A stretch of DNA of 64,000 bases, taken from a phage. Position numbers and translations under genes: made by a program. The notes beneath the pieces were generated by a model. That model was not told the DNA's origin and ran no database searches. It was given only the letters and a program-made list of their open reading frames with translations. The stretch lies in the sequence record PZ445450.1, one strand, 5' to 3'. Numbering within the stretch: the first letter of the stretch is position 1; every line of letters starts with the position of its first letter. This document shows positions 21,807-62,897 of the stretch, in pieces.

Positions 21807-22421
21807 TCTGCTCTTCTCCTACCATAAACGGCCCTACCTGGCAAGTGGAATAATTGACTAGCCATCAATCCCACATACTGTACAAATATACATGGAAAAT
21901 AACTATTGCATAATCTTTCATTGTGCGGTAGCAGGGCCATTTTTACCCGTTTTCTCTCCCAAAAGTGCACGTAATGCCGCTATTGCACAAATTTTAACCT
22001 GATGCACATATCCAATATCTTGTCAACAACTAAAAATCTTTATAAGTCATACACTTATACAGCATCGAAAGCGTGTTCTACGTGAAAAATCGAGTATAAC
22101 TATAGCCGCCAGATCTCAGAATTCACGTACGCACGCCATTCTATAGCCTGCAAAGTATTTATTCCAACCACAGAATAACGGAATAGTCAATACCTGCATA
22201 AAATAATTATTCGTGTAAACTGCATAACATAAATCAGCTCAGGTGTCAACATTTTTCGTAAACAGTCCGAAATTATCACGATGAGTTATCATAAACAGAG
22301 AAATCTTTAGTCGTCTAATGTTTACTGTACATTACTATACTGACTGGAATCATTAGATGACTAAGAAAAAGATAAGAAATAATTAATAATGTAATTGTTT
22401 TATCTGTAACAATAAGGCAAC

Positions 22422-22700
22422 CATGCAAACGAATGTCATGGCGCGACGGAGTCGCGACATAATATAAAAGCAGTAACCATCACCCCCGTGATAGTTTGTC
22501 TGCAATCTATTATTCAGATCATAGTTGCCTTGTATTTAGTTAATCATGACATAACAAGCAAGGCAACTATAGCTCTGATAATAGTTGCCCTGCTTTTATA
22601 TTATGTCATAGATTGTTAGCTTGTTAACTGTCAGCCTGTTGGCTGTTAGCTTGTCAATTATTAAATTGCTAATCTTTATCATGCAAACGAATGTCATGGC
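22422..22700. repeat. Composite repeat locus: 21-bp direct repeats flanking nested inverted repeats
   Basis: catgcaaacgaatgtcatggc at 22422-22442 and 22680-22700; 18-bp inverted repeat gacataatataaaagcag (22456-22473) / ctgcttttatattatgtc (22580-22597); inner palindromes cgcgac/gtcgcg and atagttgccttg/caaggcaactat. Confidence 0.8.
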
Positions 22701-22711
22701 TTATCATCTCT

Positions 22712-22767
22712 GTGTAAACAGTTTGGGCGTAAACTATTCAGGCGTAAACAGTCTATGCGTAAACAGT
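22712..22767. repeat. Four tandem iterons with 15-bp period (G[CT]GTAAAC[AT][AG]T)
   Basis: gtgtaaacagt, gcgtaaactat, gcgtaaacagt, gcgtaaacagt at 15-bp spacing; tgttagcttgt/tgtcagcctgt repeats sit just upstream and tgtgtc repeats downstream. Confidence 0.8.
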
Positions 22768-23141
22768 GAGATATGGAATAGTAACAGCCGTTATTGTGTC
22801 ATATTGTGTGACATTGTGTCCGGTGTCTGGTGTCCAGTGTGTCAGACAAGTTTTTCTCCTCTTTGTCAAGTGCTGCATGAAAAATTTACAAACTGGTATG
22901 GTAGCATTTTTGCGGCCCTGTTTACATTCAGTTGTGTATGTATAACCCTTGTTGTGTGGGCGTTTAGACGTCTAGACGGTTGGAAGTCTGCAGGTCAATA
23001 TCTAATCTATCGGCTGCTAACTATATCCCACACAAATAGTAAGAAATATAATTGTTATGTGCGTAAACAGTAACTCATGTTATCAATCCCTGTATGTATC
23101 GCCAGTGGTGCGCATAATGGGTATTATGTTAAATTGCCCGT

Positions 23142-23178
23142 AATGATAATGGTTCTCACAATGATAGGTATTCTCATT
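23142..23178. promoter_or_regulatory. Fur-box-like palindromic motifs
   Basis: aatgataatggttctcacaatgataggtattctcatt; same motif family as 10773 and 10903. Confidence 0.35.
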
Positions 23179-23420
23179 CATCCACACAAAATAGGTTGCA
23201 AATGTTGTGCCACTGTGTGAACGGCCTGGCCTATTAATTTCCCTCACTGCCTCGATATTTGAGAATTGTTATAAGAATGAGAAGTATTCCCATTTCGTCC
23301 GCCTGGCAGCACTCCTGTAGTCCTACAAGGACTCTAGCTGAAAGCTAGACCCTTCGGGCCTCCCTGCAGGTCAGGTCAAAATCGTGGTAGAATTGGGCTT
23401 ATTCAGATATTTCTGGCCGA

Positions 23421-23961
23421 CTCTTCAGGTCTGTGTGGGAAAAGCCAACCTCTCCGGCGGGGCAGGGGGAGGTCAATTAAAAAATTTACGTGGTGTATGA
23501 AGCGCTCTTCAGGTAAGGCAGGTATTATGGGATGAAACCCTCTTCAGGCAATGATATTTGTGGGTGTGATATTTGCTGGAAAGCCAGATATGACGGGACT
23601 CCCGGCGGGGATGGGGCAGTACAGACAGGGAAAATATGGGGATGTAGTTGGGTAAATTGATCAGACAGGTAGAGTATGGAATATGTTACAAGTATGTTAA
23701 ATATGGAGGGTGAATATCTGTAGGATTTGTGTGTAAAATCAAAGACTTAAGCGGTGTTGTGGTATTTTCTATAAATAATTCAAGTTTAATAGGTAATATT
23801 TGTCTCTATCCACTCTGTGTGGTAAACAGATTCAGATGATATTGGTTTGCAAGTGTATACATAATATACAAATTAAAGATACAAGAAACCCCCCTCCCCC
23901 TTCGGCTACCATTCACCTTTTCCTCTGACTGGTACTTAAACACTTATTCAGACTCTTCAGG
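23421..23961. repeat. Dispersed direct repeats of CTCTTCAGG with degenerate ~110-bp units
   Basis: CTCTTCAGG at 23421, 23505, 23540 and 23953; ctccggcggggcaggggg and ctcccggcggggatgggg recur; no supported ORF. Confidence 0.7.
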
Positions 23962-24311
23962 TTATCACCCATATATCATATGGCAGTGACTGGTGTCCTC
24001 CGGCCCCTCTTTCGTCACCCGTCCGCTTCGCCATGCTAATGCCATAGCCAAATGTTCGGTTGTTCACCCTGTTCACTCAGGTGTATCTCCATACCCCTTC
24101 AAACCGAAGAGAACAGAAAACCCGAATTACTCGGTAAAAGAAAAGAGAAGAACTTAATTTTATCATGATAGGCAAGAATGTCAAGGCATGACTGCTCACT
24201 AAACAAGCAAACAGTCATGTGTGGAAGGTAAGTGATTGTGGTGGTAGGAAATTTAGTTGAAAGATGTGTTATAGGTGCTCCCAGCACTTTAGCCGGGTAG
24301 CTAATTGTGTG

Positions 24312-58593: not shown

Positions 58594-59148
58594 ATGAAAT
58601 ACTTTGTAACAAGCGACACACACTTTCTCCACCAGCGGGTCATGGAGTTTGATTCATGTCAAAAACACAGATCTCAGTATGATCACAATCTTGACAGTAT
58701 GAATGCGGGAATCATCGCCGAATGGAACTCTGTTGTGTCACCTGCAGACACTGTGTTCCACTTGGGAGATATTGCGTGCACTAATGATAAGAATATCAAC
58801 AACTTACTTCCAGATATTCTAAATATGTTGAACGGACATATTATTCTTGTTCGTGGCAACCATGACACAAGGACGACTGTCAGAATTATGAAAGAGTTCG
58901 GTCATGAGGTTGTAGATTATTACGAGCTTCGCCACAACAAGAATTTGATCTGTATGAGCCATTACCAATTTGCAAAGTGGAACAGAAAGCCTCACGGATC
59001 AGTCCAACTGTTCGGTCATGCTCACGGAACCACACAACAGTTGTTTGGCAGGCAGCTTGATGTCGGTTGGGATGTGTGGGGGAGACTCTTACCATTAGAA
59101 GAGGCATACCGTATTGCAATGAGTTTTGCTATTGACAGCGGGGAGTAA
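58594..59148 (+). CDS. calcineurin-like metallophosphoesterase
   Basis: SDTHF, GDI, VRGNHD, GHAH motifs; gagg RBS before internal ATG. Confidence 0.7.
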   Translation: MKYFVTSDTHFLHQRVMEFDSCQKHRSQYDHNLDSMNAGIIAEWNSVVSPADTVFHLGDIACTNDKNINNLLPDILNMLNGHIILVRGNHDTRTTVRIMKEFGHEVVDYYELRHNKNLICMSHYQFAKWNRKPHGSVQLFGHAHGTTQQLFGRQLDVGWDVWGRLLPLEEAYRIAMSFAIDSGE

Positions 59149-59195
59149 TCCCTGCTATTTTAAAGAAAATTGCCACACAAGGAGAATCAGGAGAT

Positions 59196-59546
59196 ATGAA
59201 AGATGGGGATAAGCTGCTATATCTTAAAGTCCCCCTTGAAATACTGTCTATGTCAAAAGTTTTGAATGACACAACTGGAGAGGTTGTTGTTCTTGACTTA
59301 TATGACAAGATCGTATACTGCTACCTGCACAACTGGTACAAGCTTGGAGGAAATTCACGCTTCACACCCAGCACAAGGAAAATTGCAGCAGATGTTGGGA
59401 TAAAGAAAACAAAAGCAGCAGCGTGCGTTAAAACTTTAGAATGTGCAGGAGTGGTTGAAATATCCACACAAGGGAGAGGTAAAAGATGCACATTTTCCAA
59501 AGTTTTGCCACCAGAAGAGGTTATTCGAATGTCAACAACTGGTTAG
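59196..59546 (+). CDS. winged-helix/HTH DNA-binding protein (putative initiator or repressor)
   Basis: aaggagaatcaggag RBS; HTH-like TRKIAADVGIKKTKAAACVKTLECAGVVEI; immediately upstream of iterons. Confidence 0.5.
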   Translation: MKDGDKLLYLKVPLEILSMSKVLNDTTGEVVVLDLYDKIVYCYLHNWYKLGGNSRFTPSTRKIAADVGIKKTKAAACVKTLECAGVVEISTQGRGKRCTFSKVLPPEEVIRMSTTG

Positions 59547-59620
59547 ACCAGTAAAAACTTAAATATCTGTACTATAAGGATTCGTATGTTTTATGTCCAC
59601 CCCAGAGCAGAGGATAGTAA

Positions 59621-59705
59621 CTGTCCGTGATACGGACACTACTGTCCGTCACGCGGACACATCTGTCCGTAATACGGACACTAACTGTCCGTGATACGGA
59701 CACAT
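59621..59705. repeat. Four tandem palindromic iterons CTGTCCGT-N4-CGGACAC
   Basis: Units at 59621, 59642, 59663 and 59686 at 21-23 bp spacing; each contains inverted half-sites GTCCGT/ACGGAC. Confidence 0.85.
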
Positions 59706-59893
59706 AAAGAATATAACTAAAATAACTAAATAATAAAAAAATAAAAGATCTAGTACTTATGGTACTAAAGTGCATATACTTAACTTATGTAGAATATACT
59801 AGATCCTAAGTACCATGTTTTAAATTTATTACTTATTGTTGGTAGTGTCGGCCCTTCATTGGCACTCGCCTACGAGGGGCGAGATGCCGGGCC
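59706..59893. other. AT-rich tract with nested palindromes followed by a long GC-rich hairpin
   Basis: 59706-59845 is strongly AT-rich with agtac-ttatg-gtact and agatctagta/tactagatc inverted repeats; hairpin 59850-59893 with ggccc/gggcc outer stem and ggca+ctcgcc / ggcgag+tgcc inner stem. Confidence 0.6.
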
Positions 59894-60208
59894 TCCATAG
59901 TGCACACAATGACAGAAGTGCATACATGCAGGACTGTTAACATGTGTGGGAGCGAAGCGATAGCGCAGGCCAAAGGCAGAGCACTAATGTTGACCACCGA
60001 CGAAAGCTTGCCAGCGCCGGAAGGAGTCGGTTGAGAGACTCCCGCGCGAGTTCTGATAAAGTTTATGTGTGGAAACTGACAAGAAGGCTCCTAAATCGCT
60101 CCACAGCTATATAAACTATACCAAGTAAGGCAATCGCACCAGTTTGATAGAAAAGCTCGTTACAAAGCGATACAGTGAGTTTTTCTATAACTTGAAGAGG
60201 AGGCTGCT

Positions 60209-60787
60209 ATGAGTTCACGCAAAGATGCCCGTGAAAAGATTGCAAAACGTTATCAGGATGAAGAACAGATGGAGAAAACTTTCAAGTGGAAGCCAGGTTT
60301 CCAGCGTAATCATTCTAACGCCCGTGATCGTAAGCATCCTGATAAGTGGCTAACACCGCCAAATGATGGCATGCAGGTTGGTGATGAGAAGGAGCTATCA
60401 CCTGGAAAAGATGGCAACTACATTCGCACTAAGGACGCCAGTCCAAAGGATGACAGCTATCTTGTAGATAAGGTTCTTGATGGTATTGATGTAGATGTTG
60501 ACACTGCACGAAACCTTTTTCTTGGTTGGTATCGTACAGGTTTTTTCGACATCGAGGCTATTCGTCGTGTTTGTGATATTAAAAAGTCTGCATATGATGA
60601 CGACTCGTTACATCGCACCCTGAGACAATATTCAGAAAGATATGGTCATCCGGTTATCACTCTTGACGATGTTAACGAAGTGATGTATCATGCAGAGGTT
60701 GTTGCAGGCAGATTTGGTGATGCATATCTTGATATCCTTTCTGCAAACGATGAGGTAATGTTGAATAAGATTTACTATGAACGTTGA
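60209..60787 (+). CDS. hypothetical protein
   Basis: gaagaggagg RBS; 192-aa ORF. Confidence 0.55.
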   Translation: MSSRKDAREKIAKRYQDEEQMEKTFKWKPGFQRNHSNARDRKHPDKWLTPPNDGMQVGDEKELSPGKDGNYIRTKDASPKDDSYLVDKVLDGIDVDVDTARNLFLGWYRTGFFDIEAIRRVCDIKKSAYDDDSLHRTLRQYSERYGHPVITLDDVNEVMYHAEVVAGRFGDAYLDILSANDEVMLNKIYYER

Positions 60788-61305: not shown

Positions 61306-61593
61306 GGTTGTTTTCGTGTATCATGATGAATATCCAATTTAAAGATGAGTTTGATGGCTTTATCTCCGGATGCTTTGAAACAGGGTTCGGAGAAGGCTGA
61401 GTTCCCCTTAGAGGGCTTGATAGTGCACCACACTTAAAATGGTAGGGGCAGCCAGCACATGACGATGTGACCCCAGCCAACCTGTAATAAGGTCGAGCCA
61501 GAGCGCGGTAATGGGTATCTGGTAACCCACTTGTTGGGTCTTGCTGGTCCAGGACGCTGGGCAAGTCGCAGGGAATACCACCCTGCGGCGAAC

Positions 61594-61640
61594 TTGACAA
61601 TCAGTATTTGCCGTGATAAAATCCACCTATCACGTGATAA
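61594..61640 (+). promoter_or_regulatory. sigma70 promoter (TTGACA-N17-TAAAAT) overlapped by operator-like repeats
   Basis: -35 61594-61599, -10 61617-61622; CGTGATAA direct repeat at 61612 and 61633 and GTGATA...TATCAC inverted repeat spanning the -10. Confidence 0.55.
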
Positions 61641-61650
61641 TGGAGGAAAC

Positions 61651-62085: not shown

Positions 62086-62160
62086 GCCCTGTTAGCTTAG
62101 TGGATAAAGCAGCGGCCTTCTAAGCCGTTGACACTGGTTCGAGTCCAGTACGGGGTGCCA
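62086..62160 (+). tRNA. tRNA-Arg (anticodon UCU)
   Basis: Cloverleaf folded by hand: acceptor gccctgt/acggggt (one G-U), anticodon loop CUUCUAA, T-loop TTCGAGT, CCA encoded. Confidence 0.8.
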
Positions 62161-62164
62161 AATT

Positions 62165-62251
62165 GGGGAGTTATCCCGTAGAGGTAGCGGTGTAGACTGT
62201 AAATCTATTGTCATTGCGACTCGGGTGGTTCGACTCCACCACTCCCCACCA
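62165..62251 (+). tRNA. tRNA-Tyr (anticodon GUA), class II
   Basis: Acceptor ggggagt/actcccc, anticodon loop CUGUAAA, long variable arm, T-loop TTCGACT, CCA encoded. Confidence 0.75.
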
Positions 62252-62365
62252 AATTTATATTTTTAAATGCATAAATCATACAGATAATGACATTGATATT
62301 TATCGTCGTTTATACTAGTCACTAACTGCTCGAAAATCAGTGTCATTATCAGTGTAATTTATAAA

Positions 62366-62456
62366 GGAGGGTAGGGAGCAATGGTGCTCAAGCGGTCTTG
62401 AAAACCGTCCCGTTGAGGATGACTCGATGATGGTTCGATTCCATTACTCTCCGCCA
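62366..62456 (+). tRNA. tRNA-Ser (anticodon UGA), class II
   Basis: Acceptor ggagggt/actctcc, anticodon loop CUUGAAA, long variable arm, T-loop TTCGATT, CCA encoded. Confidence 0.75.
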
Positions 62457-62554
62457 CATTGTTGACCTTGTAATTAAGCGAAAGCCGGAAGCAGAACCGG
62501 ATTATCAAATGTTACAGTCGTCATCGCCGACTAGCCACATGGTCAACATATTGC

Positions 62555-62653
62555 GCTAGGTAAGCCCTTTGGCAAGGGCGAGGATTTTTAATCCTGAAAA
62601 TAGACGAGGTAGTCGTTGAATACATAGGTGGTTCGATTCCATCACCTAGCACC
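62555..62653 (+). tRNA. aberrant tRNA-like gene (candidate Lys-UUU-like anticodon loop; ~30-nt insertion before T-arm)
   Basis: Acceptor gctaggt/acctagc, D-arm gccc-tttggcaa-gggc, T-arm ggtgg-ttcgatt-ccatc. Anticodon region aggatttttaatcct gives UUUUUAA loop only with a 4-bp stem; ~30 nt lie between it and the T-arm; 3' CC only. Confidence 0.45.
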
Positions 62654-62657
62654 TTTT

Positions 62658-62733
62658 GCTGATGTAGCACAATTGGCAGTGCAATTGATTTGTAATCAAT
62701 AGGTTGCAGGTTCAAGTCCTGCCATCAGCACCA
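62658..62733 (+). tRNA. tRNA-Thr (anticodon UGU)
   Basis: Acceptor gctgatg/catcagc, D-stem gcac/gtgc, anticodon loop UUUGUAA, T-loop TTCAAGT, CCA encoded. Confidence 0.8.
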
Positions 62734-62734
62734 T

Positions 62735-62809
62735 GGCCCTGTAGCTGGAAGGTTCAAGCAAGCGACTCATAATCGCCAGACGGTGGTTCAATTCCACCCA
62801 GGGCCACCA
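62735..62809 (+). tRNA. tRNA-Met (anticodon CAU; elongator Met or Ile2 lysidine type)
   Basis: Acceptor ggccctg/cagggcc with G1-C72, anticodon loop CUCAUAA, T-loop TTCAATT, CCA encoded. Confidence 0.7.
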
Positions 62810-62820
62810 AATAATAAATA

Positions 62821-62897
62821 CTCCGCGTAGCTCAGCTTGGTAGAGCGCCTGATTTGGGATCAGGAGGTCGAGTGTTCGAATCACTCCGTGGAGACCA
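62821..62897 (+). tRNA. tRNA-Pro (anticodon UGG)
   Basis: C1-G72 acceptor typical of tRNA-Pro, anticodon loop UUUGGGA, T-loop TTCGAAT, CCA encoded. Confidence 0.8.

Follow-up and report, generated by a model that had tools for sequence, protein, structure and literature searches.

The satellite PLE of Vibrio cholerae replicates from an origin whose semi-palindromic iterons are bound by its initiator RepA, as electrophoretic mobility shift assays and genetics have shown; replication requires these repeats and also functions supplied by the helper phage ICP1 (Barth et al., 2020, PMC7145576). Here we analyze a locus that resembles the PLE origin and lies in a 64,000-nucleotide stretch of phage DNA from sequence record PZ445450.1 (the window, within which positions are counted). 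A gene for a small helix-turn-helix (HTH) protein is followed there by four palindromic repeats, an AT-rich tract and a GC-rich structured element. Our analysis suggests, at what we judge to be an even chance, that the locus is a modular iteron-type replication origin of the rV5-like phages. Among solved structures, that of PLE RepA is the most closely related to the HTH protein, by sequence as well as by fold. Each system pairs an initiator, in the phages a candidate one, with semi-palindromic non-coding repeats, and the phage-encoded T7-like replisome and superfamily 1B (SF1B) helicase on which PLE replication relies both have counterparts encoded by the rV5-like phages. They differ in that PLE RepA has a C-terminal domain, whereas the rV5-like HTH protein corresponds to the N-terminal domain only, and in the sequence and number of the repeats. 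Moreover, the module is the phage's own in the rV5-like phages but the satellite's in PLE, and no structured GC-rich element has been described for the PLE origin.

Other well-characterized origins resemble the locus in part. The lambda origin consists of four iterons with internal dyad symmetry, an AT-rich tract and a GC-rich inverted repeat, with transcription reading through it, and lambda relatives exchange a specificity module made up of the initiator's DNA-binding domain and the iterons. The rV5-like locus has the same order of four dyad-symmetric repeats, AT-rich tract and GC-rich part. However, the lambda origin lies inside the O gene, whereas the rV5-like repeats begin 75 bp downstream of a stop codon; lambda O carries a P-binding C-terminal domain, whereas the HTH protein has no Pfam match to Phage_rep_O; and the GC-rich part is a 28-bp palindrome in lambda but a structured element of ~205 nt here. 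In the staphylococcal plasmids pSK41 and pTZ2162, RepA_N-type RepA proteins with a winged-helix N-terminal fold like that of the HTH protein bind, as dimers, iterons with inverted sub-repeats. Unlike at the rV5-like locus, these iterons lie inside repA and converge on a poly-A centre, and the proteins carry a DnaD-like C-terminal domain. The T7 primary origin, T4 oriF and oriG, and ColE1 RNA II combine a promoter or transcript with an AT-rich unwinding element and use an RNA primer or R-loop, a role for RNA that may by analogy parallel that of the structured + strand element. These origins are without an iteron-binding protein and share no sequence or Rfam similarity with the locus, and no promoter comparable to theirs was identified there.

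The 1.2 kb around the locus is 90-99% identical to 118 phage records, including rV5, FV3 and BASEL Vequintavirus isolates; on this sequence identity, the window is from a Vequintavirus, an rV5-like Escherichia coli myovirus with a genome of ~135 kb. These phages encode a T7-like replisome comprising a PolA-type polymerase, a gp4-like primase-helicase and an SF1B (RecD/Pif1-like) helicase. Their origin is undefined: an AT- and GC-skew analysis of the rV5 genome that was aimed at it showed only switches in the direction of transcription (PMC3606486). In the literature searched, we found nothing beyond this genome paper on the origin, iterons or transcriptome of the rV5-like group. Statements on the whole genome below refer to a ~134-kb composite in which phage B9-1, 99% identical, supplies what lies outside the window, and conservation within the genus is given as variable columns among 11 full-length Vequintavirus intergenic sequences. 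The locus has the following parts.

59132-59161, + strand: promoter-like site of sigma-70 type, TTGACA-18-TATTTT, directly ahead of the HTH gene (consensus scan)
59196-59546, + strand: winged-helix (HTH) protein gene (open reading frame, PHROG 12838, AlphaFold2/Foldseek)
59547-59620: spacer from stop codon to repeats, poorly conserved (28% variable columns)
59622-59638: candidate iteron 1, TGTCCG-TGATA-CGGACA
59643-59659: candidate iteron 2, TGTCCG-TCACG-CGGACA
59664-59680: candidate iteron 3, TGTCCG-TAATA-CGGACA (TGCCCG in most relatives)
59686-59702: candidate iteron 4, TGTCCG-TGATA-CGGACA
59704-59845: A-rich to AT-rich tract, 21% GC (measured over 59706-59845), candidate DNA-unwinding element
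59846-60050, + strand: whole GC-rich structured element, ~205 nt, non-coding and conserved

The HTH protein, the repeats and the AT-rich tract

The HTH gene named in the initial annotation was confirmed; it is an open reading frame (ORF) of 116 aa on the + strand. The promoter-like site ahead of it corresponds to promoter P76, annotated at the homologous position in the rV5 RefSeq record. The protein matched PHROG 12838 ("replication initiation protein") with an E-value of 2.5e-80 and, weakly, the N-terminal part of three other PHROGs with the same description. Its sole significant sequence match in the PDB was 4RO3 (E 1.4e-6 with the single sequence, 1.6e-5 with the family profile), which is the N-terminal domain of PLE RepA (PMC7145576). 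Structure comparison pointed to the same relatives. With an AlphaFold2 (AF2) model whose alignment included Seunavirus-type homologues (predicted local distance difference test score, pLDDT, 79), a Foldseek search of the PDB ranked 4RO3 at the top (E 2e-5). Next came the staphylococcal RepA proteins of pSK41 and pTZ2162 with their N-terminal domains (4PQL, 4PT7 and 5KBJ, the last a RepA-iteron DNA complex; E 4e-4 to 3e-3, TM ~0.55), and MarR-, LexA- and CodY-type regulators ranked below them (E above 1e-2). An earlier model from a shallow alignment (pLDDT 48) had been discarded and was kept out of the fold search. As modelled, the protein has the winged-helix fold of a RepA_N-type N-terminal domain, which spans the 116 aa end to end and leaves out the C-terminal domain found in RepA_N initiators. 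Because it amounts to the N-terminal domain alone, we describe it as a stand-alone RepA_N-like domain and not as a member of the family. Judged by its sequence and predicted fold, it is a stand-alone homologue of the DNA-binding domain of RepA_N-type initiators.

Only members of the genus have the protein at high identity. Beyond Vequintavirus, an exhaustive search (1.8 billion representatives) returned only weak HTH_36/DUF6945 relatives, which makes it a near-orphan. Two listed protein-search hits (P0007 and P0010) were low-complexity or immunoglobulin-domain artefacts, and nothing was confirmed among the viral contigs searched for related loci with the HTH protein.

Four units at two-turn spacing had been noted downstream of this gene, and all four are there: Tandem Repeats Finder reported 4.0 copies with a period of 21 at 59620-59703, the units are spaced 21, 21 and 22 bp apart, and every one is itself palindromic. 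The unit first given, CTGTCCGT-N4-CGGACAC, was slightly off and is better written as the palindrome TG(T/C)CCG-N5-CGGACA, since variation among relatives fixes the arms TG(T/C)CCG and CGGACA and leaves the 5-nt centre free to change. Only 6% of the columns in the repeats vary. A search of the window with TGTCCGTNNNACGGACA at up to two mismatches gave four matches against 0.09 expected, a count reached in none of 100 shuffles. In the composite genome, TGYCCG-N5-CGGACA occurs at these four sites alone, even with one mismatch allowed, and this uniqueness argues against a multi-target regulator. A scan of IMG/VR for the palindrome found only isolated, apparently chance matches. As in iteron origins, the repeats are clustered, helically phased and of one sequence, and we infer that the neighbouring HTH protein would bind them. 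Three rV5-like contigs from Logan metagenomes end inside or just after the array, for which assembly breaks at the repeats are the simplest cause.

Winged-helix dimers on palindromes are classic repressors, and transcription reading through from the 59132-59161 promoter would cross the repeats. The array could accordingly be an autoregulatory operator through which the HTH protein represses its own gene or blocks read-through as a roadblock, with no part in replication, an alternative that the initial annotation had also offered. The position of the sites fits this poorly: they lie downstream of the gene, ~75 bp past its stop codon and ~460 bp from its promoter, and no promoter-like site on the + strand overlaps 59621-59705, although operator sites would be expected to overlap or flank a promoter. 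A weak antisense promoter-like site nearby (TGGACA-17-TATAGT, 59599 to 59571, - strand), which points into the 3' end of the HTH gene, speaks for an operator, but it is degraded in rV5 and JEP1, where the -35 is affected; in the Aya lineage, its -10 is improved. Four phased sites, a stability minimum and a structured element also exceed what an operator needs, and we consider this explanation highly improbable.

By nearest-neighbour energies, the AT-rich tract that adjoins the repeats ranks as the genome's least stable duplex at windows of 60, 100 and 140 bp, and it provides the easily melted region expected beside the repeats of an iteron origin. Its variable columns (15%) are found mainly at the edges, and the core is nearly invariant in the genus. 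The initial annotation was right about the richness in AT; the nested palindromes it reported there are weak, with arms only 71-73% complementary. The tract contains, at 59738-59750 on the - strand, the genome's only perfect match (GATCTTTTATTTT) to GATCTnTTnTTTT, the 13-mer consensus of E. coli oriC; one match against 0.14 expected is compatible with an origin but weak evidence. A consensus scan found no sigma-70-like promoter in the tract, and none is annotated there in rV5. Enrichment of GATC was not significant, as 16% of 140-bp genome windows hold at least two such sites, and short motifs that the tract shares with the AT tracts of Seunavirus and Mydovirus (TAGAATAT and AAAGATCT) were too little over-represented to interpret.

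Co-variation of protein and repeats among relatives

More distant phages carry related proteins next to other repeats. Seunavirus SPLA5a and Mydovirus VIK251 each encode a 105-aa homologue of the HTH protein that can be aligned end to end at 23-27% identity. It is located at an intergenic region of divergent transcription and is preceded by an AT-rich tract and two ~20-bp repeats that stop 13 nt before the HTH start codon. The repeats (TATCAATTTGAG..TAGGCT in Seunavirus, GTGCTCAAATTGAGCA in Mydovirus) are quite unlike those of the window in sequence. We do not claim homology between the AT-rich tracts of Vequintavirus and those of these two genera, as the alignment similarity is of low complexity only.

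The divergent rV5-like contig IMGVR_UViG_3300010279_000001 (137 kb) shows synteny with the window: a phosphoesterase gene lies upstream and a gp73 homologue downstream. Between them is a different HTH protein of 143 aa (27% identity, E 5e-7) that matched the same region of PHROG 8102. Its gene is followed by five palindromes TCTGATnCA-N5-TGnATCAGA, a spacer, a 70-bp A-rich tract (20% GC) and a GC element 84.5% identical to that of the window. The HTH protein and the repeats thus co-vary while the element stays constant, which suggests that the specificity unit has been exchanged as one. Origin specificity in lambdoid phages and iteron plasmids is likewise swapped as a protein together with its repeats. 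The gene adjacent to the repeats, a candidate for their cognate initiator, encodes a homologue of an initiator DNA-binding domain, and it co-varies with the repeats in three lineages. Experiments aside, this co-variation is the strongest available indication that the protein would bind the repeats.

The structured element in phages and plasmids

The hairpin at 59850-59893 folds as initially described. The role of GC clamp that went with it was not borne out: the hairpin is helix 1 (H1) of a conserved structured element that extends beyond it on the + strand and has the following parts.

59850-59893, + strand: hairpin H1, with a 5-bp outer stem and a 10-bp inner stem with one bulge (folding; 6% variable columns)
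59941-60050, + strand: 3' domain of the element, with helices P1, P2 and P3
59943-59952 with 60039-60048: closing helix P1, with three U.G pairs
59975-59978 with 59991-59995: helix P3
59996-60001 with 60026-60031: helix P2, which encloses an invariant 24-nt loop
60019-60022: GNRA tetraloop G(G/U)AA inside the loop enclosed by P2, either GGAA or GUAA and so varying at the N position

A search of E. coli genomes and plasmids with the GC block brought up homologues of the element on small plasmids, and comparison of these and the divergent phage with the genus revealed seven compensatory pair changes. The H1 stem is kept in plasmid NZ_CP020521 through two double changes from G:C to U:A. In P2, three of the six pairs differ between phage and plasmid while pairing is kept at all of them, and one position alternates between A-U, G.U and G-C. 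P3 has a C:G to A:U change specific to the window phage, and P1 a G:C to A:U change in the divergent rV5-like phage. Across an alignment of 13 distinct sequences, which are mutually related and from which the structure itself was derived, 97.2% of cells were paired, compared with 38-43% in controls slid by one to three columns; four pairs changed on both sides, and the covariation score was 0.150 versus 0.078, reached in none of 500 shuffles. RNAalifold detected no covariation when given the genus members alone because their diversity is too low, and support came with the addition of the divergent phage and the plasmids. The U.G pairs, the G.U alternates and the GNRA loop with its variable N point to a fold of the + strand; the opposite strand would carry A.C mismatches at the U.G positions. 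The element is therefore most likely an RNA read from the + strand.

Rfam searches yielded no match to the element, the only matches in the window at gathering thresholds being tRNAs; the one match obtained in E-value mode, rli43, was spurious (22 bits against a threshold of 100). We also rejected a coding reading of the GC-rich region, annotated as ORF78 in rV5: substitutions show no preference for third codon positions, which indicates that the element is non-coding, and the ORF annotated there in rV5 (gp074) is probably spurious. Of the sequence that links H1 to the 3' domain, 18 nt (window 59906-59923), located between the short direct repeats GTGCAC/GTGCAT, are missing in rV5, so this stretch is dispensable. 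Nor is H1 an intrinsic terminator, as its stem is followed by TCCATAGTGC and not by a U-tract, and a terminator scan listed none there.

A covariance-model search of Seunavirus, Mydovirus and Justusliebigvirus loci found no further homologues of the element, and unrelated contigs holding its 21-mer core match only a 20-nt word and not the element according to the same kind of model. In Seunavirus and Mydovirus, a non-coding, GC-rich stretch in which CTCTGAGAG occurs repeatedly and also inverted lies within a few hundred bp of the HTH gene and repeats (L111 3040-3150, L110 3170-3275). It may correspond to the structured element, although it gave no match to covariance model R1.

The plasmids that share the element form a family found in 7 of 5,426 complete E. 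coli genomes, either as a circular plasmid of 13.3-13.7 kb or as a 39.6-kb record with three such places (NZ_CP020521.1, NZ_CP035869.1, NZ_CP178698.1, NZ_AP045055.1, NZ_CP074841.1, NZ_JBUCKS010000006.1 and NZ_CP043822.1). Their hosts came from humans, cattle, a pig and a chicken on several continents. We found no description of the family in the literature searched, and PLSDB lists the plasmid only as non-mobilizable. The plasmids encode major capsid, baseplate and tape-measure proteins. The baseplate protein and a neighbour are 44-50% identical to proteins of the window phage, the tape-measure protein is 26% identical, and the only phage relatives of the capsid protein are capsids of 140-150-kb myoviruses (22-25% identity). 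The family may consist of satellites of rV5-like phages that are borne on plasmids, or of miniaturised relatives of these phages.

In the plasmids, a non-coding region of ~3 kb holds arrays of palindromic repeats ahead of the element. In NZ_CP020521, these are six copies of CGG(A/T)AATATTTACCG, the first few of them 23 bp apart, and AT-rich palindromes and then the GC element come after them. Past the element, the plasmids have two small ORFs and a gene for a 288-306-aa HTH protein with weak hits to the "replication initiation" PHROGs 428 and 391. Repeat types and HTH proteins differ from one plasmid to another, while the 3' domain of the element is the same. Since a plasmid must have an origin, the region of repeats and element is the obvious candidate for oriV, and it closely parallels the phage locus.

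Satellites commonly copy cis sites of their helpers, as P4 does with the P2 cos site. With a GC element common to phages and to satellite-like 13-kb plasmids that carry capsid and tail genes, and a terminase gene ~4 kb downstream of it in the window, the locus could also be a cis site for packaging or segregation (pac or centromere) that the plasmid-like elements copied from a helper phage for mobilisation or partition. However, the compensatory changes, the G.U pairs and the GNRA loop indicate a single-stranded fold and not a duplex site, the repeats differ between phage and plasmids, and searches of Pfam, PHROG and the PDB (Foldseek) revealed no similarity of the HTH protein to small terminases or ParB. 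We think such a site very unlikely.

For the element itself we offer a conjecture, held tentatively and with considerable doubt: that it is an undescribed structured RNA and the core that stays constant in an exchangeable module, for replication or control, common to Vequintavirus and the plasmids. It would plug satellites or miniature relatives into the machinery of helper or host, with initiator and iterons swapped to set specificity.

Replication origin or control region

From the features described above we infer a mode of action for the locus as an origin. The early sigma-70 promoter would drive the 116-aa protein with its RepA_N-type winged-helix domain, and dimers of this protein would occupy four dyad-symmetric sites two helical turns apart and hence on one face of the helix. 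The resulting nucleoprotein array would bend or strain the DNA and help to open the adjoining A-rich tract, where the phage's T7-like replisome (gp4-type primase-helicase, PolA-type polymerase and SF1B helicase) would enter. Read-through transcription from the HTH gene might aid this entry, and the structured + strand element might supply a primer or R-loop RNA, or act as a signal for loading or priming. The layout of initiator gene, iterons and meltable tract proposed in the initial annotation is strengthened by the homology to PLE RepA, the co-variation, the uniqueness of the sites and the stability minimum; its terminal clamp is the part that falls away.

Several observations weigh against an origin. 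The HTH protein only approached the Pfam cut-offs (DUF6945, 27.1 bits for a cut-off of 28; HTH_36, 24.5 bits for a cut-off of 25), Pfam RepA_N (PF06970) was absent among its hits at E-values up to 1, and as a DNA-binding domain alone it is without the C-terminal domain by which RepA_N initiators are thought to recruit factors. Scans for DnaA boxes and integration host factor (IHF) sites found none in the iteron and AT-rich region. One-mismatch matches appeared only downstream, at 60068 and 60137, the former being the only DnaA-box-like one in the scanned stretch; the DnaA boxes and several 13-mers of an E. coli oriC-type origin are thus not present. Cumulative GC skew reaches its global minimum 1.5 kb away from the locus, at the main divergent strand switch, but skew follows the direction of transcription, and we rejected it as independent evidence for an origin. 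The region at 21970-24100 could compete as a second or alternative origin, and it could also contain the genome ends or a packaging region. It is a ~2-kb non-coding region at a convergent strand switch, where cumulative GC skew is at its maximum. It holds several repeat families (GCGTAAACAGT about six times, TTAGCTTGT, ATAGTTGCC, TATTGTGTCA and GTGTCCG-like 7-mers), and the second least stable segment of the genome (~22270-22410) lies by it. Lastly, the element folds on the + strand only, with U.G pairs and a GNRA loop, and lies at the start of a run of + strand lysis and structural genes that extends over ~50 kb. For a strand-specific element heading a late block, a transcriptional role is an equally good explanation.

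Such a role would make the locus a control region for the downstream late unit, with the HTH protein as a transcription factor, the AT-rich tract as a non-canonical promoter or UP-like region and the element as the leader RNA for gp73 onward, for example a put-like processive antiterminator or an element that controls translation or stability. All downstream genes (gp73, tRNAs, spanins, terminase and structural genes) are on the + strand to ~112 kb, and the element is structured on the sense strand only, with the three U.G pairs, G.U alternates and variable-N GNRA loop typical of RNA. The AT-rich tract is conserved in sequence besides composition, the plasmid element heads an operon with a Rep-like gene and tail genes, and the position of the Seunavirus and Mydovirus repeats just ahead of the HTH start codon suits autoregulation. 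Against this, neither the consensus scan nor the rV5 annotation places a sigma-70-like promoter in the AT-rich tract, and the sequence directly upstream of the element is not conserved when the window type, the plasmids and the divergent phage are compared with one another. In addition, the closest characterised relatives of the HTH protein are replication initiators and not regulators, and a scan detected no nearby terminator on which antitermination could act. We regard a control region as the main rival of the origin, though as less likely than it.

Downstream of the element, the spacer before gp73 is poorly conserved (32% variable columns), and beyond the locus the window holds further features.

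60209-60787, + strand: first downstream gene, 192 aa, PHROG 12226, function unknown; its position beside the GC element is kept in all relatives

In the tRNA cluster at 62086-62897, ARAGORN called a 99-nt tRNA at 62555-62653 with a four-base anticodon (atcc) and no amino acid assigned. Its Rfam tRNA score is weak (35.5 bits), and it may hold an intron or be degenerate or unusual. A second GC-rich (53-58%) non-coding island at 61350-61600 lies upstream of a strong sigma-70-like promoter (61594-61622) and an ORF at 61648. Rfam gave no match for this island, nor is it similar to the element at 59846-60050; it may be another structured RNA. Among the phage records, 18 labelled "Campylobacter phage" (MG0656xx, host Campylobacter jejuni) share at least 96% identity with rV5-like phages of E. 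coli over the locus, which makes the host label doubtful.

The layout of an iteron origin and the kind of protein domain seen here were already known. New are the origin candidate, the stand-alone RepA_N-like domain in lytic coliphages, the swapping of the specificity unit, the structured element without an Rfam family and its presence in plasmids. The rV5-like phages (Vequintavirinae) are widely isolated and used in cocktails for therapy and biocontrol, and the locus gives them, in place of an undefined origin and initiator, a precise candidate made up of a single small protein with four sites, an unwinding tract and a structured element. If the proposal is true, RepA_N-type domains, known until now from plasmids of Gram-positive bacteria and from the Vibrio satellite PLE, would extend to lytic coliphages in stand-alone form, and the locus would be a natural case of origin-specificity swapping around a constant core. 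The module could then serve the engineering of rV5-like phages. Together with the small plasmids carrying phage structural genes, the element points to an undescribed RNA and possibly to an undescribed type of phage satellite.

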